The notes: a model not told the origin generated them from the letters alone. A stretch of DNA of 64,000 bases from Promethearchaeota archaeon (GCA_048941285.1 JBHLNS010000001.1:1-64000), one strand, 5' to 3'. Counted from the first letter of the stretch, positions 6,882-60,323 are shown. Numbers and translations are program-made.

Positions 6882-7085
6882 TATTGGTTACCCTCAAATT
6901 ATTTTTAAAAAATTGGATTTACCTTTTTCTCAATTTATAATAGCAAGTATAGTATTTTGAGAGATCCTTAAAAAGTTTTTACACTTTTGAATATATTTCA
7001 AAATGAAGAAGAAACATATTAATATGAATAAAATCTAATTTCCATAGTAATCTAAGTTTCTTACTCATAAATTAGAGTTTAAATT

Positions 7086-7988
7086 GTGATAAAAATGTCA
7101 GAAAAAGATTTAAAGAAAAAATTAGTAATAAGCGCTGCTCTTACAGGAGCAGTAACCAATAGAGATATGAATCCTAATGTCCCATTTACAGCAGAAGAAT
7201 TTGGGGTTGAAGCTAAAAAATGTTATGAAGCAGGAGCAGCAGTAGTACACATCCATGCACGAGATCCAGAAAAAGGTAATCCCACGCATGAATTAAACAT
7301 TATAAGCGCTATACTAGATAATATTAAAGAAAAAGCCCCAGATATATTAATTAATCTTAGCACCGCAATAAGTTCAATAGTAACCCCTAAACAAAGAATT
7401 GAACCTGTTGCGACATTTAAACCTCCTATTGCTTCATTAAATACCAATTCAATGAATTTCGCAGTAGGAGATCATAAAACGGGACAAGTTGGACTTGGCT
7501 CGAAAAATATTTTTGAAAACACATTTGATACTATTCAAAAATTTGCAAAAGCAATGAAAAAAGCACAAACAAAACCAGAAATCGAAGTTTACGATATTGG
7601 TGGAATGTATAACATTTTACATTTATCAAAACAACAACCTAAACGACTTCTTGATCCTCCACTTCATTTTCAGTTTGTATTCGGTGTTTTAGGAGGAATA
7701 CCTTTTTCCTATGAAAATTTAGCACATCTTATCAATCTCAAACCTCCAGATGCTAGTTGGAGTGTTTGTGGTGTAGCTAAAAACCAATTTCAAGCAGCAA
7801 TGTGTGCAGCGGCTATGGATGGGCATATTCGGGTTGGATTAGAAGATAATACAAAATTACCTGATGGTCGATTAGCCAAAGGAAGTTGGGAACAAGTAGA
7901 ATGGGCTGCAAAGGTTGCTCGAGTAGCAAATCGTGAACCAGCAACCCCTGATGAAGCAAGAAAAATCTTTAATTTATACCAACAATAA
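7086..7988 (+). CDS. 3-keto-5-aminohexanoate cleavage enzyme (BKACE/Kce) family protein
   Basis: ISAALTGA, VVHIHARD, KPEIEVYD, HIRVGLEDN, ATPDEARKI; start may be ATG at 7095. Confidence 0.9.
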   Translation: MIKMSEKDLKKKLVISAALTGAVTNRDMNPNVPFTAEEFGVEAKKCYEAGAAVVHIHARDPEKGNPTHELNIISAILDNIKEKAPDILINLSTAISSIVTPKQRIEPVATFKPPIASLNTNSMNFAVGDHKTGQVGLGSKNIFENTFDTIQKFAKAMKKAQTKPEIEVYDIGGMYNILHLSKQQPKRLLDPPLHFQFVFGVLGGIPFSYENLAHLINLKPPDASWSVCGVAKNQFQAAMCAAAMDGHIRVGLEDNTKLPDGRLAKGSWEQVEWAAKVARVANREPATPDEARKIFNLYQQ

Positions 7989-8106
7989 TAAATTCATTAG
8001 GTTATTTATTTTAATTTTATTTTTTTCCTTATCTTATATTAATTATTAATTGAATTAATTTTATTATTCAGTTTATTGAACTCCAAAATTAAGAAGGTGT
8101 GTTAAT

Positions 8107-9192
8107 ATCAAACCTAAATTTATTCCGGGATTAAAATTATCTGAATATTTTTATAGAGATGTTATAAAAGAAAAACTTGAAAAGCAATATCCTGAATTAA
8201 AATATGCTGCTGCTTTAATTGGTCGAGGTTCTGAAGTTCTTGGATTAGATGATGAAATCTCTACAGATCATCACTGGGGTCCAAGGTTACAAATTTTTTT
8301 GAGAGAAGTAGATTATAATAAATACCATTTACAAATTAAACAATTTTTCAATAATAATCTCCCGCTTAACTTTCTTGGATATTCTACAAACTGGAGTGAA
8401 CCAAACGGGAATGATAATATGAATCAGTTTCTGATACAAAAAGAAATTGGCCCCATTAATCATAGAATTGAAATTTATACTGTTCAAAATTTCTTACAAC
8501 AGTTTCTAGGTCTTGAATCCTTAAATCTTACTGAAATTGACTGGTGTACAGTTCCAGAACAGAAGTTATTAGAGTTTACATCAGGAAAGGTATTTTATGA
8601 TAATTTAGGAGAATTAACCTATGCTAGAAAAATCTTAAACTACTTTCCCGATTCAATTTGGAAATTAAAACTTATTGTGCAATGGGATCGAATTTCTCAA
8701 GAAATGGCATTTGTAGGAAGGATTGGAATAAGAGATGATGAATTAGGATCCAGAATAGAAGCCTCACGTTTAGTGAGATATATTATGGAGTTGGCTTTCA
8801 TTCTTGAGAGGAAATATATTCCGTATGAAAAATGGTTTGGTATAGCTTTCAAAAACTTAATTATAGCAAAGAGTTTAGAACATCTATTATTAAAAATATT
8901 AAAGGAAAATAAATGGCAACAACGAGAGAAACATCTATGTGATGCGTATTTAAAACTTATTAAAATGCATATAGAGTTAAATCTAATCCCCAATATTGAA
9001 ATTAAGCCTATAAAATTCTATAATCGACCCCAGTTAGTGGTTCCACTCCAGCAGTTTATTGAAGAATTAAAGAAAGGAATTGCTTCTTCTTTTAACCAAG
9101 CATTATATTCTCTAGGAACCATCAACCAATTCATTACTATTTGTAATAATCTAAATCTTAAATTTTGCAAAAGAGCGAAACAGTTTTATTAA
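8107..9192 (+). CDS. DUF4037-family (nucleotidyltransferase-like) protein; probable start upstream of the track ORF at a non-canonical ATC
   Basis: Frame of the 8299 ORF is open back to TGA at 8077 and encodes KPKFIPGLKLSEYFY...AALIGRGSEVLGLDDEISTDHHWGPR, the family N-terminal motif; YIPYEKWF downstream. Confidence 0.75.
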   Translation: MKPKFIPGLKLSEYFYRDVIKEKLEKQYPELKYAAALIGRGSEVLGLDDEISTDHHWGPRLQIFLREVDYNKYHLQIKQFFNNNLPLNFLGYSTNWSEPNGNDNMNQFLIQKEIGPINHRIEIYTVQNFLQQFLGLESLNLTEIDWCTVPEQKLLEFTSGKVFYDNLGELTYARKILNYFPDSIWKLKLIVQWDRISQEMAFVGRIGIRDDELGSRIEASRLVRYIMELAFILERKYIPYEKWFGIAFKNLIIAKSLEHLLLKILKENKWQQREKHLCDAYLKLIKMHIELNLIPNIEIKPIKFYNRPQLVVPLQQFIEELKKGIASSFNQALYSLGTINQFITICNNLNLKFCKRAKQFY

Positions 9193-9336: not shown

Positions 9337-9939
9337 TTAAAATGTAAAACCTTCTGGAAGTTCTGATTCAGTTGTATCCTCAACAACAAACATTAAATCC
9401 ATAATTGTATAGGTCGGGCTCTTGGTTCGAAAGATTGGTACAACTCTCTTTCCAATTTCTGGTTCTCCTACAACTAAGACGCTCATAAGAATCGTAACTA
9501 CTTCTTCATCAAACTCAACATTTATAAATTTGATGGGCTTTGGTAAGATATTAAATGCTCCAGAACGATGGGTAATGATAAATGAGTGGATCTTGGCAGT
9601 TTTTTGAGCTTTCTCAGTAATATCTACAATAGTATTTTTTCTTAGGCAATCTGGGCAATAAATTCGAAATGGTTCATAAATTGAACCTTTTGTTTCACAT
9701 CTTTTGTTATCACACCTAGAAGCCATTAGTTTTCCTTTACCAAGAGACTCGAAAAATATAGCTTCTTCTCCATATGAGTGTATATATGTCATATCTCTGG
9801 GGTTTGTAACACCTGCTAGTTTTCCTGTTTCTTTATTATAAATCGGTTGATTTTTTTCAATTATATGAAAAACTCCTTTAGGTTTATATCTCTCATTAAC
9901 AATCTCTACAAAACCTTTTTCCTGTTCTGTTTTTGGCAT
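9337..9939 (-). CDS. DUF35 (Zn-ribbon + OB-fold) thiolase partner protein
   Basis: FFESLGKGKLMASRC-x4-C...CPDC zinc ribbon followed by OB-fold; 4 bp downstream of the thiolase. Confidence 0.85.
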   Translation of the reverse strand: MPKTEQEKGFVEIVNERYKPKGVFHIIEKNQPIYNKETGKLAGVTNPRDMTYIHSYGEEAIFFESLGKGKLMASRCDNKRCETKGSIYEPFRIYCPDCLRKNTIVDITEKAQKTAKIHSFIITHRSGAFNILPKPIKFINVEFDEEVVTILMSVLVVGEPEIGKRVVPIFRTKSPTYTIMDLMFVVEDTTESELPEGFTF

Positions 9940-9943
9940 CTTT

Positions 9944-11365
9944 CTAATCCTCCTTTATTAAATTATTTGGATCCATTAAAATAGTACATGTTACATGGGA
10001 ACCTACTCCAGCATGAGAAATTGCTAAACCTCTTTTCGCTCCCTTAACTTGTAGGCTAATCCAATCTTTTGGTTTTTCCCTACCAAAAGCTTTCCATTTT
10101 TCCTCAGGCTCATGGATTTCATCCCATCGATTCCAAATATGATATCCAATTTCAGCAATTTGCATTAAACCTGTCGCTCCTACAGCATGCATACACCCTA
10201 TCAAACCACCACAAGGATTACTAGGTAACTTTCCTGGCTTTTTAGTATGTGGGTTAATAACATACGCATCTCCGCTTTCTATATAATCCCTTCCTTCTCC
10301 ATAAGGCCTAATTCCAATGTCTTCATATGTTTGAATATCGCTGATTGTAAATGCATCATGAAGTTCAACTAAATCCAGATCATTTGTCGGATCAACGACA
10401 CCAGACATGTGATAAGCATAATAAGCAGACATTCTAGCTGCTAAGAAGCTTGTAAAGCCTGGATAACGGTCTCCACCTGGGAATCTTTTGCCTAAATCAT
10501 CATATTGATTTGATTTTTCATTAGGTAAGAGAGGTATTTTCATATCTCTTCTATCAGCTACCCGTAATGTATGGCTACCAGCTGCAATATATATCCTAAG
10601 TGGTTTATCTGTTATTTCATATGCTGTTTTTTCATCACATACTATTCCACAGGCAGCTCCAACACTCATCAAACAACAATCTAAAGCACGTAAGGGATAC
10701 GCAACTATAGGTGAGTTTATTACATCTTCAACAGTGATTTTCATAGGGCCTTGAGCGTGAGGATTCATTCTAGCATAACCTCGATTTTTTACTGCAACTT
10801 CGGCCATAGTATTTCGAAATGAATCTTCTTCCTTACCAAATATTTTCCAATATCTTTGAGCCATAACAGCATAATAACCTGTATATATATGTCCAAGGGG
10901 TGTTTCCCAATCTTTATCTGCTGCGCACGATATAAGATGGTTACCTTCATCAGTAGGAACTTCGTCCATTCTTTCCCATCCTAACGCTAAAGCACAATCA
11001 CTATAACCTGAAGCCACCGCTTTTACAGCTTCCCACATTGCAGAACCCCCGGTAGCACCACCTGTTTTTACTCCGATGTTGCCTAATGGATCTAACCCAA
11101 GTCTATCATGAATTACTGCTTCTCCAAGTAATTGATCTCCAAAATGGTCTGCAAAATGACCATAATAACACGTATGAATATATTGTTTTAATTCACTAGG
11201 AGTCATATTTACAAAATCCGCTGCCGCTGTAAGCGCATCAATACACAATTCTTCAGTTCGCGTTTCTGGAAAGGCCCTATCGAATTTTGACATTCCAACT
11301 GTAGCTAAATAGACAGGTCTCATCAGCTTCGGTATTTTTAATTGTTTATCGCTAAATTTAATCAT
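9944..11365 (-). CDS. Thiolase-superfamily protein (SCP2/Ltp2-like) lacking the N-terminal nucleophilic Cys
   Basis: VGMSKF, GWERM, VAVKNR..NPHAQ, ELHDAF, NPCGGL..HAVGATG; GGATG in place of CASG. Confidence 0.88.
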   Translation of the reverse strand: MIKFSDKQLKIPKLMRPVYLATVGMSKFDRAFPETRTEELCIDALTAAADFVNMTPSELKQYIHTCYYGHFADHFGDQLLGEAVIHDRLGLDPLGNIGVKTGGATGGSAMWEAVKAVASGYSDCALALGWERMDEVPTDEGNHLISCAADKDWETPLGHIYTGYYAVMAQRYWKIFGKEEDSFRNTMAEVAVKNRGYARMNPHAQGPMKITVEDVINSPIVAYPLRALDCCLMSVGAACGIVCDEKTAYEITDKPLRIYIAAGSHTLRVADRRDMKIPLLPNEKSNQYDDLGKRFPGGDRYPGFTSFLAARMSAYYAYHMSGVVDPTNDLDLVELHDAFTISDIQTYEDIGIRPYGEGRDYIESGDAYVINPHTKKPGKLPSNPCGGLIGCMHAVGATGLMQIAEIGYHIWNRWDEIHEPEEKWKAFGREKPKDWISLQVKGAKRGLAISHAGVGSHVTCTILMDPNNLIKED

Positions 11366-11558
11366 ATTAACTTCACTTTTTAGAATTTTTTATCTTTTTT
11401 ATTTTTGCAATTTAGTTTTCAAATTAAGTTGATATTTTATGTTTATGTTTTATTTTGATTAAAAACTTACTAATTAGGCTTTAAAAATGAGAATGGGAAA
11501 AAAATCCTCTTTTGGAGAGAAGAAAATTTAAAATCATAAGAAAATTGTCTTATTTATT

Positions 11559-18621: not shown

Positions 18622-19056
18622 ATGTCAGGAATCGAAAAAGTTATTTCTTCCTTTAGGGGAGAATTTAATTGCGCTCAATCGGTATTAAGTTCATATTCTA
18701 GTAAATATGGATTAGATAAAGATACTGCTCTGAAATTATCAACTGGATTTGGAGGGGGAATGGGGCGTATGCAAAACACATGTGGAGCTGTATCTGGGGC
18801 TTTTATGGTTATTGGATTAAGATATGGACGGGGTCTAAATGACGATAAGGAAGCGAGAGAAAAAACCTATGAGATAATAAGAGAATTTTCAAAGAGATTT
18901 CAAGAAATTCATGGCTCAATAATCTGTAAGGAGTTGTTAGATTGTGATATCAATACTCCTGAAGGAAGGGAATTCTATGATCGAAATGATTTTTTTGAAA
19001 AGAAATGTTTTCAGTATGTAAAAGATTCAGCAAAGATTTTAGAGCAAATATTATAA
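18622..19056 (+). CDS. C_GCAxxG_C_C family putative redox protein
   Basis: NCAQSV, GFGGGMG, TCGAVSG, ICKEL, KC. Confidence 0.9.
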   Translation: MSGIEKVISSFRGEFNCAQSVLSSYSSKYGLDKDTALKLSTGFGGGMGRMQNTCGAVSGAFMVIGLRYGRGLNDDKEAREKTYEIIREFSKRFQEIHGSIICKELLDCDINTPEGREFYDRNDFFEKKCFQYVKDSAKILEQIL

Positions 19057-55448: not shown

Positions 55449-56819
55449 TTGAATAATTTATTAATTGAGTTGTTTAAATTGGATTTTGTACCTCATGATG
55501 ATAAAACAATTGGAGAAATGTTAAATGTAATAGGTGTTAAATCTTTACAAGAACTATTTTTAGATGTCCCTAGTGATCTAATTATCGAAAATCTTAAAAT
55601 ATCATCCGGATTATCTGAACCAGATCTTATAAGACAGATAAAAAAAATTGTTCAGAAAAATAAAGTATATACAAATTCTTTTTTAGGAGCTGGTTGTTAT
55701 TTTCATTATATCCCCTCCTTAGTTGATTTTGTAACTTCTCGATCAGAATTCTATACCGCTTATACACCATATCAAGCTGAAGCAAGTCAAGGATATTTAC
55801 AAGCTATTTATGAATTTCAAACAATAATTTCAAGATTAACTCAAATGGATGTTGCTAATGCAAGTATGTATGATGGATCAACCGCTCTTGCAGAAGCAGC
55901 AATAATGTCAACCAATATTACAAATAAAAGTTCTGTAATTTTACTTGAAGGAATTCATCCCGAATATTTAGATGTTATTAAAACCTATTGTTGGGGGCAA
56001 AGTATAAATCTAGAATTTGCCAATGAACAAACTCTGATTGAATTATTATCAAATGATAGTGCCGCATTAATATTTCAAAGTCCTAACTTCTTCGGTGATA
56101 TTGAAGATGTTAATAAAATTGTAAAAAATGTTAAAGATAAATATCCGAATTGTTTAATTATTCAAGTTATGACAGATCCAACATGTCTGGGAATATTAGA
56201 AACACCAGGTGCCAATGATATTGACATTTTTATTGCTGAAGGTCAATCTTTTGGCATAACTCCTTCTTTTGGTGGTCCAGGATTAGGAATATTTACTTCT
56301 AAACAAAAATATCTAAGAAAGATGCCAGGAAGACTTATTGGTAAAACAAAAGAAATAAATGGTGAAAAGTTAGGCTTTATTTTAACACTACAAGCACGTG
56401 AACAGCATATACGACGAGAAAAAGCAAGCTCAAATATATGCACAAACCAAGCATTGTGTTCATTAGCAGCATTAACATATCTTTTAGCATTAGGAAGAAC
56501 CGGTTTGAAAGAAATTGCTAATCAAAACATTCAAAAAACACATTATTTAAAGCAAGAACTTAGTAAAATCCCTGGATATAAAATATTAAATAAGAAACCA
56601 ACATATAATGAATTTTTACTCAAGTGTCCTAATATTGAATCCTTAATCGATTATTGTATAAAAAAAGAACTATTACCTCCCTTAAAAATTTCAAATTATT
56701 ATCCTAAAATGAAAAATGTTGCTTTAGTGTGTGTAACAGAAATGAATTCAAGACAATCAATGAATAATTTCCTTGAAGCGGCTCGTTCTGCTTCGAAAAA
56801 TAACAGGGAGGGATCATAA
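55449..56819 (+). CDS. gcvPA: Glycine dehydrogenase subunit 1
   Basis: FLGAG.Y.H, YTPYQAE.SQG, NASMYDG, FGGP, REQHIRREKASSNICTNQ; start may be TTG 55479. Confidence 0.95.
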   Translation: MNNLLIELFKLDFVPHDDKTIGEMLNVIGVKSLQELFLDVPSDLIIENLKISSGLSEPDLIRQIKKIVQKNKVYTNSFLGAGCYFHYIPSLVDFVTSRSEFYTAYTPYQAEASQGYLQAIYEFQTIISRLTQMDVANASMYDGSTALAEAAIMSTNITNKSSVILLEGIHPEYLDVIKTYCWGQSINLEFANEQTLIELLSNDSAALIFQSPNFFGDIEDVNKIVKNVKDKYPNCLIIQVMTDPTCLGILETPGANDIDIFIAEGQSFGITPSFGGPGLGIFTSKQKYLRKMPGRLIGKTKEINGEKLGFILTLQAREQHIRREKASSNICTNQALCSLAALTYLLALGRTGLKEIANQNIQKTHYLKQELSKIPGYKILNKKPTYNEFLLKCPNIESLIDYCIKKELLPPLKISNYYPKMKNVALVCVTEMNSRQSMNNFLEAARSASKNNREGS

Positions 56820-58258
56820 TCATATTTTCTAATATTGAATTAATTTTTGAAAAAGAAATTGAGAATGAACTCAATAATTTTGTTCCTCAAATAGATATTG
56901 AAGAAGTTGATATCAATGAAATTTTACCAAAAAATCTACAAAGAAAAGAGTTACCAATACCAAATATTCCAGAAATTGAAATAGTTCGTCACTTCATCAA
57001 TTTAAGTTACAGAAATTATGGTGTAGATACAGGAATATATCCATTAGGCTCCTGTACCATGAAATATAATCCTAAAATAAATGAAAATATCGTAAGATTG
57101 CCTGAGATTACTCATATTCACCCTTTACAAGAAGAAAATAGCGGTTGTCTTGAATTAATTCATCATATCTCCAAATTATTGGGAGAAATAACTGGTATGG
57201 ATGGATTTACAATGCAACCAGCAGCAGGAGCTCATGGAGAGTTAGTTGGTTTATTAATAATAAAAAAATATTTTGAGAGAAAAGGTATTAAAAAAGATAA
57301 AATTATAGTACCCGACTCTGCTCATGGAACTAATCCTGCTTCAGCAAAAATGGCTGGATTTTCAATTATTGAAATACAGTCAAATGAACACGGAGAAGTT
57401 CCATTAGATAAATTAAAGTTTGCTATGGAAGAAGGTGATGTTGCTGGTATTATGCTTACCAATCCAAATACACTTGGGGTTTTTGATAGACAAATTAAGC
57501 AGATCACAAGAATTGTTCATGAAAATGGAGGTTTATGCTACTACGACGGAGCAAATTTAAATCCAATGTTGGGAATATGTCGTCCTAGAGATATGGGATT
57601 TGATATTATTCATTTAAATTTACATAAAACCTTTTCCACTCCACATGGTGGTGGTGGTCCAGGATCAGGCCCTGTTGGGGTTGTAGATGAGCTTATTCCT
57701 TTTCTTCCCGAACCATGCTTAATTTCAACTCAAAAAGGGATTATTTGTAAAGAAAAAAGTGATAAGTCAATAGGCAGAATTAAAGCCTTTTGGGGTAATT
57801 TTGGGGTAATCGTTAGAGCTTATGCCTATATTTTAGCCTTAGGGGCTGAAGGCTTGAAAAGAGTAGGTCAAATCTCTGTTTTAAATGCTAATTATTTAAG
57901 AGTTCTTTTACAAGAGAAATACGATCTTCCTTTTCACCGAATGTGCCAACATGAATTTATTCTCTCAGATCGGTCAATGCCGAATGAAATTACAACAGAA
58001 GATATAGCAAAACGTATTCTCGATTATGGAATATATGCTCCCACTATATATTTTCCATTGATAATTTCTGGTGCTTTAATGATAGAACCCACTGAAACTG
58101 AATCAAAAAAATCATTAGATTATTTTGTAGAAGTAATGAATAAAATTTACGAAGAAGCTAAGAAAAATCCTGAAATTCTGAAAAAAGCGCCCCAAAATAT
58201 GCCTGTAAAACGTTTAGATGCTGTCTTAGCTGCTAGAAAACCTATATTACATGATTAA
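56816..58258 (+). CDS. gcvPB: Glycine dehydrogenase subunit 2; conserved N-terminus begins upstream of the track ORF at ATA/ATC
   Basis: Upstream in-frame LIFEK...EIVRHFINLS.RNYGVDTGIYPLGSCT continues into MKYNP; also QPAAGAHGE, AHGTNPAS, HKTFSTPHGGGGPG, IEPTE. Confidence 0.92.
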   Translation: MIIFSNIELIFEKEIENELNNFVPQIDIEEVDINEILPKNLQRKELPIPNIPEIEIVRHFINLSYRNYGVDTGIYPLGSCTMKYNPKINENIVRLPEITHIHPLQEENSGCLELIHHISKLLGEITGMDGFTMQPAAGAHGELVGLLIIKKYFERKGIKKDKIIVPDSAHGTNPASAKMAGFSIIEIQSNEHGEVPLDKLKFAMEEGDVAGIMLTNPNTLGVFDRQIKQITRIVHENGGLCYYDGANLNPMLGICRPRDMGFDIIHLNLHKTFSTPHGGGGPGSGPVGVVDELIPFLPEPCLISTQKGIICKEKSDKSIGRIKAFWGNFGVIVRAYAYILALGAEGLKRVGQISVLNANYLRVLLQEKYDLPFHRMCQHEFILSDRSMPNEITTEDIAKRILDYGIYAPTIYFPLIISGALMIEPTETESKKSLDYFVEVMNKIYEEAKKNPEILKKAPQNMPVKRLDAVLAARKPILHD

Positions 58259-58346
58259 CAGTATAAATTTTTAAATTTTTAAAGTCTATAGCAATATAAA
58301 TTCTAAATTAGTATGAAAATTATAAATTAGATTTTGGTGTACAAAA

Positions 58347-60323
58347 ATAAATTATTTATCTTTTTTCCCTTACGATAAATTCAGAGAAAATCAGGAAAAA
58401 ATCATTAAACAGATTGAAGAAAGTTCAAGATCTAAAAAACTAATTCTATTATTAGCTCCTAATGGTACAGGAAAGACAATTATTGCTTTATCTAGCCTAC
58501 TTCCTTTGGCTTTTGAGAAAAACCTAAAAATTGTTTATATGTGTCGGACACACTCTCAAAATCGGAGAGTAATAAAAGAATTGATAAAAATTTCAAATAA
58601 GATTGCTAAAGAGGATGTTAATTTCAAACTTAATGCGCTCTCAATTAGAGGCAGAAATGAGATGTGTTTAAATACAACATTATTATCTCTTAAATTAAAT
58701 CCAAGGGAAGCTATGTCCGTTTGTAGTGATTTAAGAAAAAATAGAAATTGTATTTATTTTCTAAATTTATTAAAAAAAAGGGGTCAAATTGAAAATCCAT
58801 TATCAATCGCGCCAGAATTATTTAATAAACCAATTGATGCTGAAGATTTGATAATATTCTGTAAAGAACATAAATTTTGTCCTTACTTCTTGAGTAAATT
58901 CTTACTTGAAGAAATGAAAGTTATCATTTGTAATTATCAATGGATTTTTAATCCTTTTATTCGTGAATCTTTTTTAGAATTCATTGGAAAAGAACTTCAA
59001 AATTGTATCTTAGTATTAGATGAATGTCATAATATAATTGACATTGCAACAGAAATTAATTCAAAAAAAATTACACCTTACTCATTAAGATTATGTTTAA
59101 AGGATCTTGAAATGTATAGATCGCCAGTTCTAATGCAGAGTTTCGCACAAATATTATTAAATCAACTACAAGTAAAAAAAAAGAATTTAAGAGTAAGAGA
59201 AAAAGCAATACAACCAGATAAGTTTTTAATATCAATTTGTAGAAAATTAGGATTTTCTGACCTAAATGGATTTAAGAATTTTATTGAAGAGCTTCATGAT
59301 TTCAGTGTATCAATTCATGAGGAAAAAATGGCAAATGGGGAAATATCTAGAGATTTTGTTGGTTCATTGGCAGAATTTTGGTTAAAGTGGTTAGACACAT
59401 TTTCGCTTGAAAATTATTTCTTCTGTTATAACGTTAAAGAGAATAAAGGAAAAAGTTTAATCTCACTTGAAATTGTAGCCTTAGACCCTAGAGAAATTGC
59501 TATTCCTATATTGAAAAAAAGTTTTACTTGCTTAAATCTCTCTGGAACAGTAAATCCTTTTGTTTATAATAATTTAATGGGACTGAATGAGTGTGGTAAG
59601 AGTTATAAGGGAATTATTGCTGATTCACCATTTAGTAATAAAAACATTAAGGCTATTATAACAGAAGGAGTAGATACTAAACGAGATAGTAGGAATCCGA
59701 CTATGTTCAAAAAAATGATAGATAAAATTGATGAAGTTTTGCAAAGCACTCCTGCAAATATTGGAATTTTTTGTGCATCATATAAAATCCTTAAGGGATT
59801 GTTAACAAATGGACTTGAAAATATCATAATTAAAAATAAAAAAAAATTATTTATTGAGGAATCTGGATTGTCAGCCTCAGAAAATGCTTTATTAGTTGAT
59901 GATTTCAAAAATATGGCTTCAAATGGCGGTGCTGTCTTATTAGGTGTCTGTGGAGGTAGAAATTCAGAAGGAGAGGACTATCCTGGAGATTTTATGAACG
60001 CAGTAATAATTGCAGGATTTCCATATCATTTACCAACCCCTAGAGTAGATGCAAAAATAAAATATTATGATAAAGTGTTTAAAAGACAAGGTTGGAATTT
60101 CGCTTACTTGTATCCCGCTGTGCAGAGAGCAAATCAAGCTTCTGGAAGACCTATAAGAAAAATTTCTGATAAAGGGGTGATAGTTTTCATGGATAGCAGA
60201 TTTAAATCAAAACATAAATGGATTTCTGATTGGATAAGGAAAGAAATAGAAATAATTCCTGATATCCCAAATGTTATATTTCAGAACTTATCCAGTTTCT
60301 GGAAGGTTAAGAAACCTGTTTAG
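58347..60323 (+). CDS. xpd: XPD/Rad3 Fe-S DNA helicase; N-terminus (Q motif, Walker A) lies upstream of the track ORF, probable ATA start
   Basis: In-frame NYLSFFPYDKFRENQ...APNGTGKT; RTHSQ; four Fe-S cysteines; DECH; SGT; SEGED; QASGRPIR. Confidence 0.9.
   Translation: MNYLSFFPYDKFRENQEKIIKQIEESSRSKKLILLLAPNGTGKTIIALSSLLPLAFEKNLKIVYMCRTHSQNRRVIKELIKISNKIAKEDVNFKLNALSIRGRNEMCLNTTLLSLKLNPREAMSVCSDLRKNRNCIYFLNLLKKRGQIENPLSIAPELFNKPIDAEDLIIFCKEHKFCPYFLSKFLLEEMKVIICNYQWIFNPFIRESFLEFIGKELQNCILVLDECHNIIDIATEINSKKITPYSLRLCLKDLEMYRSPVLMQSFAQILLNQLQVKKKNLRVREKAIQPDKFLISICRKLGFSDLNGFKNFIEELHDFSVSIHEEKMANGEISRDFVGSLAEFWLKWLDTFSLENYFFCYNVKENKGKSLISLEIVALDPREIAIPILKKSFTCLNLSGTVNPFVYNNLMGLNECGKSYKGIIADSPFSNKNIKAIITEGVDTKRDSRNPTMFKKMIDKIDEVLQSTPANIGIFCASYKILKGLLTNGLENIIIKNKKKLFIEESGLSASENALLVDDFKNMASNGGAVLLGVCGGRNSEGEDYPGDFMNAVIIAGFPYHLPTPRVDAKIKYYDKVFKRQGWNFAYLYPAVQRANQASGRPIRKISDKGVIVFMDSRFKSKHKWISDWIRKEIEIIPDIPNVIFQNLSSFWKVKKPV

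Follow-up and report, generated by a model that had tools for sequence, protein, structure and literature searches.

Where does translation of a gene begin when its open reading frame (ORF) has no ATG, GTG or TTG at the position where its homologs start? The question is raised by a gene with a DUF4037 domain that lies on the plus strand of a 64,000-nucleotide stretch of DNA (GCA_048941285.1, JBHLNS010000001.1:1-64000), hereafter called the window. This window covers the first 64 kb of contig C1 in a metagenome-assembled draft genome of 3,553,451 bases in 101 contigs, with 29.7% G+C, 94% complete and 3.4% contaminated; its source is a Loki-type Asgard archaeon. An earlier note, made from the sequence of the window, had proposed that the DUF4037 gene starts at ATC behind a Shine-Dalgarno (SD) site, that gcvPB and xpd in the same window start at ATA, and that start-codon selection in this lineage may be relaxed, with systematic mis-annotation of N-termini as a consequence.

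Here we compare the DUF4037 gene with its orthologs and public homologs, screen the draft genome for ATH codons (ATA, ATC or ATT; AUH in mRNA) that stand at SD distance, and follow the start codons of several such genes in related genomes. The DUF4037 gene is very probably translated from the AUC at 8107, as one of at least about 50 SD-led AUH starts in the source genome.

The start region of the DUF4037 gene

Every element of the anatomy given in the earlier note is correct when the sequence is read directly. An in-frame TGA (8077-8079) closes the frame upstream; the SD site AAGGTG occupies 8094-8099, with GGTG at 8096-8099; a spacer of 7 nt (8100-8106) follows, and the ATC start codon is at 8107-8109. 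The first canonical in-frame codon is the TTG at 8299-8301, 64 codons downstream of the ATC, and no in-frame ATG, GTG or TTG precedes it. From ATC the coding sequence (8107-9192) has 361 codons and ends with TAA (9190-9192), within a stop-to-stop ORF of 370 codons (8080-9192). The start codon was placed by alignment with homologs and congeners, and the coding sequence was characterized with Pfam, an AlphaFold2 model and Foldseek. The 7 nt between GGTG and ATC equal the peak spacing of ATG, TTG and GTG starts in the same genome. Reassignment of the stop codon was considered and rejected: the frame above TGA has a TTG at 8050 and, two codons on, a further in-frame TAA (8056-8058), so that reading through TGA gives no usable start.

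The public gene call starts at TTG 8299 and yields a protein (P0001) of 297 rather than 361 residues that covers 82% of the query. According to this annotation the preceding 64 codons would be an untranslated leader, and TTG 8299 has in its favor that it is the sole ATG, GTG or TTG available in frame and that AAGGT lies about 11 nt before it. Homologs argue otherwise. The N-termini of 120 public homologs were compared, 94 of them below 62% identity and 26, which are Loki-type, at 62% or more. Distant homologs start at the ATC position and not at TTG 8299: annotated residue 1 aligns with ATC 8107 in 54 of the 94 and falls within -1 to +2 of it in 78. Among the 26 close homologs, one starts at the ATC position with Met, two start 14 residues before it, and the calls for the other 23 fall 8-104 residues short. 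The mis-annotation of N-termini anticipated in the earlier note is thus seen both in the public DUF4037 protein itself and in most of its close relatives.

Family-conserved sequence had also been noted ahead of the first TTG, and an alignment of 42 sequences bears this out. Thirteen of its 30 invariant columns fall within residues 1-64, before TTG 8299 (G8, L11, L37, G39, S42, E43, D48, S52, D54, H55, W57, G58 and F64). They take in a putative G-S...D-D nucleotidyltransferase motif, which is defined as G-S ... D-x-D/E in the N-terminal domain; little or no variation is seen at residues G39, G41, S42, D48, D49 and D54.

The N-terminal part of the protein (residues about 1-125) is a nucleotidyltransferase-like core; a helical part follows and bears DUF4037, which Pfam places at residues 146-244 (E = 9.5e-29). 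In the AlphaFold2 model (mean pLDDT 92.4) the residues upstream of TTG 8299 belong to the core, residues 1-64 giving a helix at 8-27 and strands at 33-37 and 60-65 with pLDDT 85-98. Because the PDB entries that Foldseek ranks highest are the nucleotidyltransferase-like 3c18, the kanamycin nucleotidyltransferase ANT(4') and the lincosamide nucleotidyltransferase LinB, the modeled gene product is probably a nucleotidyltransferase-fold enzyme. The matches to 3c18, 6un8, 1kny and 3jyy have E values of 7e-6 to 6e-4 but TM scores of only 0.32-0.49, and a sequence search of the PDB with the DUF4037 protein gave no match. A start at TTG 8299 would strip the nucleotidyltransferase-like core from the protein. 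The frame upstream of TTG 8299 is, moreover, open and conserved in four species, and we regard translation from this TTG as very improbable.

An ortholog of the DUF4037 gene was found in 6 of the 41 related genomes searched, the source genome counted. Two of the three congeners (G003 and G024) have GGTG, 7 nt and ATC at the aligned codon, and in the two orthologs that belong to other families of the order ATG stands 2-3 codons further on (M-D-F-I-P-G and M-A-S-I-S-G). These comparisons bear on recoding as an explanation, in which translation would begin at an out-of-frame GTG (8097 or 8099) and reach the gene by a frameshift, for example -1 on A_AAT_TTA (8116-8122), or by re-initiation after the mini-ORF GTG-TGT-TAA. 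The source genome does have GTG 8099 in the +1 frame with a slippery-looking heptamer downstream. In G003, G008 and G024, however, these elements (the upstream GTG, the heptamer and the mini-ORF) either lie in another frame or are missing, whereas the geometry from SD site to ATH is kept; GTG 8099 is without an SD site of its own, and about fifty other genes share the simple layout of SD site and ATH. Recoding at this locus is highly unlikely.

The ATC might also be an error of sequencing or assembly, or a recent mutation of ATG that has made the gene a pseudogene. The assembly is a metagenomic draft with a depth of about 11x at the start region, and one run among the four mapped, the probable source X1, covers 8005-8110, and thus ATC 8107; it is identical to the assembly there and lends no independent support. 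The other three DNA runs cover conserved parts only and not 8005-8110; the 16 read datasets listed for the genome are all DNA, with no RNA run among them. Against an error or a pseudogene, the assemblies of three other species also have a non-NTG start, and the 23 of 26 close protein clusters that are called short come from several sources. The ORF is intact across its 361 codons, which speaks against a pseudogene, and the genome-wide spacing peak described below cannot arise from random errors. We find this explanation scarcely credible.

Shine-Dalgarno spacing across the genome

Stop-to-stop ORFs of at least 100 codons numbered 3703 in the draft genome, and 3000 after shadow removal. Genome-wide, pieces of GGAGGTGA are enriched upstream of first-ATG starts. 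With aligned spacing taken as the number of nucleotides between the end of GGTG and the start codon, ATG peaks at 7 (114/1739), as do TTG and GTG. ATH codons were scored in ORF heads where no NTG lies upstream and the following 20 codons or more are NTG-free, which gave 5146 codon positions. An SD 4-mer at spacing 7 precedes 30 of 718 in-frame ATH codons compared with 30 of 4428 other codons (odds ratio (OR) 6.4, p = 2.3e-11), and at spacing 8 the counts are 24/718 and 71/4428 (OR 2.1, p = 0.003). Frames +1 and +2 of the same ORF heads showed no ATH enrichment at SD spacing. The sharp genome-wide peak that the earlier note had looked for as support for ATA, ATC and ATT starts therefore exists, at spacing 7 and in the gene frame only.

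Each codon was then considered separately over the 3012 positions that make up the first 13 codons of the heads, against a background of 2.1% for an SD site at spacing 6-8. ATT ranked first (36/253, p = 3e-19), followed by ATA (17/163, p = 8e-8), CTG (5/22, p = 8e-5) and ATC (7/59, p = 2e-4). The next-ranked codon was AGT (5/47, p = 0.003), and the position-2 near-cognates ACG, AAG and AGG gave no SD-spacing signal in this test. Candidate starts were then defined as ATH codons with an SD site at spacing 6-8 and within 12 codons of the upstream stop. Fifty ORFs have such a codon (ATT 29, ATA 16, ATC 5), and the three cases of the earlier note (8107, 56822 and 58347) were picked independently by this screen.

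Features of the candidates agree with their use as starts. In a Pfam check that covered 20 of the 50, the profile start aligns within residues 2-31, upstream of the first NTG, in 13; the remaining 7 were uninformative and none was contradictory. The 13 encode ribosomal proteins L21e and S10, IMP dehydrogenase, Rpp14/Pop5, a cytidylyltransferase-like protein, a DUF134 protein, a Ras-like GTPase, XPD, an ABC ATPase, enoyl-CoA hydratase, a CoA-binding ligase, a phosphodiesterase and the glycine-cleavage P-protein. Serine at residue 2 is found in 27% of the ATH candidates, in 16% of ATG genes with an SD site and in 7.1% of positions after internal Ile codons (p = 8e-6). SD sites of at least 5 nt precede 71% of ATH starts versus 44% of SD-bearing ATG genes (p = 1.6e-4), and those containing GGTG precede 63% versus 15%. 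Translational coupling was considered as a cause of ATH tolerance and rejected: the upstream ORF lies within 20 nt in 12% of ATH genes, compared with 28% of ATG genes with an SD site and 14% of all ATG genes.

The share of each start codon was estimated as its excess over background among SD-led starts. ATG accounts for about 60%, TTG for about 20%, GTG for about 3% and CTG for about 1.5%, while ATH accounts for 12.7% with 4-mers at spacing 6-8 (excess 62) or 18% with 5-mers at spacing 5-9 (excess 48); the shares are rough, because the same estimate gives certain non-start codons an excess of as much as about 15. TTG is far commoner than GTG among the SD-led starts of the genome. Five genes appear to start at CTG, in each case with a spacer of exactly 7 nt behind an SD site that ends in GTGA or GGAG (C14:23595, C40:26455, C64:9572, C67:7596 and C69:9140, all on the plus strand), and one of the five is ferredoxin-like, with a C-x2-C-x2-C motif.

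The roughness of these shares is one of several points that weigh against initiation at AUC 8107 and against the class of starts to which it would belong. All support for AUC initiation is computational. In the third congener, G008, the aligned codon is ACA; it is preceded by a stop, then GGTG, then an ATA one codon before the aligned site, and this nearest ATA is only 4 nt after GGTG; G003 has an additional in-frame TTG 14 codons upstream. Among 121 ORFs with NTG-free heads of at least 30 codons, 78 have no SD-led ATH near the head and are not explained by the class. The gene count comes from a home-made ORF and SD screen and not from a trained gene finder. The anti-SD sequence was taken from motif enrichment and a consensus, since the 3' end of the 16S rRNA is missing from the assembly, in which no 16S rRNA gene was found.

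With these points weighed, initiation at AUC 8107 is still the reading that we favor. The AAGGTG that ends 7 nt upstream would pair with the 3' end of the 16S rRNA and put AUC in the P site, where the normal initiator Met-tRNA (anticodon CAU) would read it with a mismatch at the third base. If AUC is read by this tRNA, the DUF4037 protein should therefore begin with Met; an efficiency below that of AUG and a dependence on the level of the initiation factor aIF1 would also be expected. Across the genome, at least about 50 genes would start at AUU, AUA or AUC and a few at CUG, which would be roughly 2% of ORFs of at least 100 codons and 12-18% of SD-led starts. Compared with AUG genes, AUH genes have longer SD sites with tighter spacing, and more of these sites contain GGTG.

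Start codons in orthologs of other ATH genes

The two further ATA starts proposed for the window are upheld, both having Pfam profile starts that precede the first NTG and an SD-led ATA at the aligned start site. In gcvPB (start region 56807-56824, plus strand) GGAGG at 56807-56811 is followed by ATA at 56822-56824. In xpd (58336-58349, plus strand) GGTG at 58336-58339 and a 7-nt spacer lead to ATA at 58347-58349.

Start codons at these sites differ among related genomes. For gcvPB, 12 loci were compared; the source genome has ATA and the other 11, a congener included, have ATG (9), TTG (1) or GTG (1). XPD was aligned at 28 loci, of which 14 have ATH behind GGTG with no usable upstream NTG, 2 are probable cases, 8 are canonical and 4 are unclear; the ATH starts come from at least 7 genera, and ATA, ATT and ATC interchange between congeners. 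The 30 rpS10 loci have ATA (6), GTG (8), TTG (5), ATG (5) or TCG (2), and 4 loci outside the family have ATG one codon upstream; the ATA starts belong to genera g1 and g16 and all stand behind GGTGA. Among 30 rpL21e loci ATG (14) is followed by TTG (7), ATA (6), GTG (2) and ATT (1). Every rpL21e ATH sits 6-7 nt behind GGTG, and the ATG-start orthologs often have no SD site at all. Since orthologs of rpS10, rpL21e, XPD and gcvPB switch codon at one aligned site, the identity of the start codon, as read from these alignments, is fluid in the family wherever an SD site is present.

The two rpS10 loci with TCG at the aligned start (L051 in G079 and L052 in G166) belong to one genus, a third species of which has TTG. 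The TCG is 8 nt after GGTGA, and the 16 open codons upstream of it contain no in-frame NTG at either locus.

Initiation machinery and aIF1

The earlier note had suggested that the initiator tRNA, aIF1 and aIF2 be inspected, and this was done: the tRNA is canonical, aIF1 is present, and the ORFs of aIF2-alpha and aIF2-beta carry ATG. The initiator tRNA gene is on the minus strand of contig C74 (about 18870-18990). It has the anticodon CAU, the pair A1:U72 and an anticodon stem with three G:C pairs, and is interrupted after position 37/38 by an intron of 25 nt. It was located by similarity to the gene of a relative; standard tRNA finders missed the genes of both the source genome and G032, and a search of the genome with an anticodon-arm motif returned no initiator tRNA. 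In the source genome aragorn counts 13 tRNAs with or without its intron option, and Rfam 24 tRNAs over the cut-off. In the relative G032 the initiator tRNA intron lies in the D region instead (L059). Two other tRNA-like features were observed on contig C52. One, at about 85800-85910 on the plus strand, is the intron-containing 3' part of a tRNA-like sequence whose loop reads as the anticodon UAU (Ile, decoding AUA); the other, predicted by aragorn at C52:88257-88349 on the minus strand, is a selenocysteine tRNA (anticodon TCA).

The gene for aIF1 (SUI1) lies outside the window, on the minus strand of contig C34 (2382-2696; 1477-1791 of locus L141), and has an ATT start. Its ORF has no ATG, GTG or TTG in the first 30 codons; the ATT stands one codon after TAG, with the codons of a zinc-knuckle N-terminus behind it and, about 10 nt ahead of it, the imperfect but conserved SD site AAGGTTGTGA. 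In all 25 loci of the family, from 12 genera, the aIF1 start is ATH (ATT 20, ATC 2, ATA 3) and never ATG, GTG or TTG. Over 70 Asgard loci the starts are ATH (31), CTG (5), GTG (8), TTG (3), ATG (20) or ambiguous (3), and ATH or CTG starts occur in 7 of the 18 Asgard families sampled. Four other initiation-factor genes of the source genome have ATG, in both aIF1A genes at the second ORF codon, in aIF2-beta at the first codon and in aIF2-alpha at codon 10, with an in-frame ATA at codon 1 of the last.

The bearing on the evolution of aIF1 start fidelity that had been suggested for this lineage is stronger than proposed, because aIF1 itself is ATH-started throughout the family. In Sulfolobus solfataricus aIF1 destabilizes non-AUG complexes (PMC6237735), and start-fidelity factors are described as autoregulating, IF3 through its AUU start and eIF1 through a poor AUG context (Asano 2014, PMC4705826; cited in Monestier 2018, PMC6237735). 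Because its conserved weak start resembles those of IF3 and eIF1, the comparison suggests that aIF1 limits its own synthesis. The likeness is that a factor which rejects poor starts is itself encoded behind a poor start, as at all 25 family loci; the difference is that the aIF1 feedback is our inference, and that aIF1 starts at ATG in 20 of the 70 Asgard loci. The text available of PMC4705826 and PMC6237735 makes no mention of the start codon of aIF1 itself.

The conserved AUU on aIF1 argues that discrimination between starts still operates. Relaxed start-codon selection, as the earlier note had put it, is supported with one qualification: AUH (and CUG) codons are regularly used behind strong, precisely spaced SD sites, but lax fidelity is not demonstrated. 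The initiator tRNA is canonical, aIF1 is present, its AUU is conserved and the position-2 variants are silent.

From the same analogy one may imagine a tunable circuit of start-codon stringency in Loki-type Asgard archaea, in which AUU-started aIF1 would be self-limiting and a regulon of 50 or more AUH/CUG genes would vary inversely with aIF1. The aIF1 start in such a circuit would be AUU family-wide and AUA, CUG, GUG or UUG in other Asgard families. The regulon may include rpS10, rpL21e, XPD, IMPDH, the RNase P subunit Pop5 and the DUF4037 nucleotidyltransferase-like gene. We offer this circuit tentatively, as possible rather than probable.

Spread across Asgard genomes

The same screen was applied to 400 kb from each of the other genomes named below, which are small samples of related genomes. 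The source genome has 5.6 candidates per 400 kb. A genome of the same genus (G006) has 5, and one of another family of the same order (G032, 31% GC) has 4. Three genomes of other Asgard families have 3 (G077, 40% GC), 4 (G041, 38% GC) and 2 (G113, 30% GC). The ratio of ATH to NTG codons behind SD 5-mers at spacing 6-7 is 87:162 in three Loki-type genomes versus 22:161 in these three outgroups, taken at 400 kb each (OR 3.9, p = 3e-8). The ATH start class is thus enriched in the Loki-type order, because its ATH:NTG ratio is higher than that of the outgroups, and is not exclusive to it.

These counts bear on the explanation that AUH starts are a product of AT-biased mutation in any low-GC prokaryote that uses SD sites, being tolerated but not used and in no way special to the lineage. 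The 2-4 plausible ATA/ATT candidates in each of the samples from other Asgard families fit this, as does the gcvPB ATA, which is private to the source genome among the 12 loci. Against mutation bias, the AT-rich outgroup G113 has a lower ATH:NTG ratio, 6:36, than the three Loki-type genomes (OR 3.2, p = 0.007). The XPD start is kept as ATH across many genera while its third base interchanges, and the aIF1 ATH is fixed within the family. The published cases in Staphylococcus aureus and Deinococcus deserti, so far as those reports describe them, number four genes each. We judge mutation bias alone to be unlikely, while allowing it more room than the other alternatives set out above, and continue to favor regular initiation at AUH.

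Comparison with known systems

Initiation at AUA or AUU has been described in S. aureus, where infC, cvfC1, ccpN and citZ have such starts with an extended SD site and yield about 10-30% of the output of AUG (Nat Commun 2026, PMC13009471). As far as these accounts go, the S. aureus starts and the AUU starts of bacterial infC (IF3) and pcnB resemble those found here in being third-position near-cognates with an extended, well-spaced SD site, conserved in relatives and missed by gene callers. S. aureus, however, has four sites and is a bacterium with IF3 and fMet, whereas the present genome has about 50, S10 and L21e among them, known from sequence alone, in an archaeon with eukaryote-type aIF1, aIF1A and aIF2.

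Non-canonical starts in D. deserti include ATC in dnaA, CTG in rpsL and ATA in infC (MCP 2010, PMC2830850). There too, according to the portion of the report available, ATC and CTG serve as starts of essential, conserved genes that include a ribosomal one, and annotation was mended by alignment of N-termini. The D. deserti work concerns four genes in a GC-rich bacterium and established them by N-terminal proteomics, in contrast to our computational approach and to a gene number about ten times larger.

The closest case by organism is AtubA of a Lokiarchaeial (Kariarchaeaceae) metagenome-assembled genome, for which a 'rare ATT start codon' was inferred (Sci Adv 2026, PMC13394414). It concerns the same class of organisms, and the deposited protein was likewise without a conserved N-terminal strand, with ATT at a plausible distance from the ribosome binding site. 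In the part of that paper available it is, however, a remark on a single gene in the methods, without genome-wide or comparative analysis. Our literature search, which did not cover supplements, turned up neither a genome-wide survey of AUH initiation in Asgard archaea nor any account of the codon at which aIF1 itself starts.

A review, in the passages available, names AUG, GUG and UUG as the start codons of archaea and describes SD sites as seemingly not prevalent in the available Lokiarchaeote genome (PMC7531240). To this picture our results would add a strongly SD-dependent class of weak starts and a conserved weak start on a fidelity factor.

Asgard proteomes, which are mined for eukaryote-like proteins, rest almost wholly on automatic calls that allow only ATG, GTG and TTG. 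Should about 2% of genes begin at AUH or CUG instead, proteins will have been deposited without conserved N-terminal elements or missed entirely. The products affected here include ribosomal proteins, a repair helicase, GTPases and aIF1, and AtubA has already needed manual repair. Autoregulation of aIF1 becomes directly testable in cultured Loki-type strains; if it is true, self-limiting fidelity control would extend to all three domains, the archaeal relatives of eukaryotes included.

Neighboring genes

The DUF4037 gene is flanked in the window by an upstream neighbor at 7083-7988 (plus strand), the product of which resembles, by eye only, a beta-keto-acid cleavage enzyme. On its other side, at 9337-11389 on the minus strand, are a DUF35-like gene and a thiolase-fold gene.

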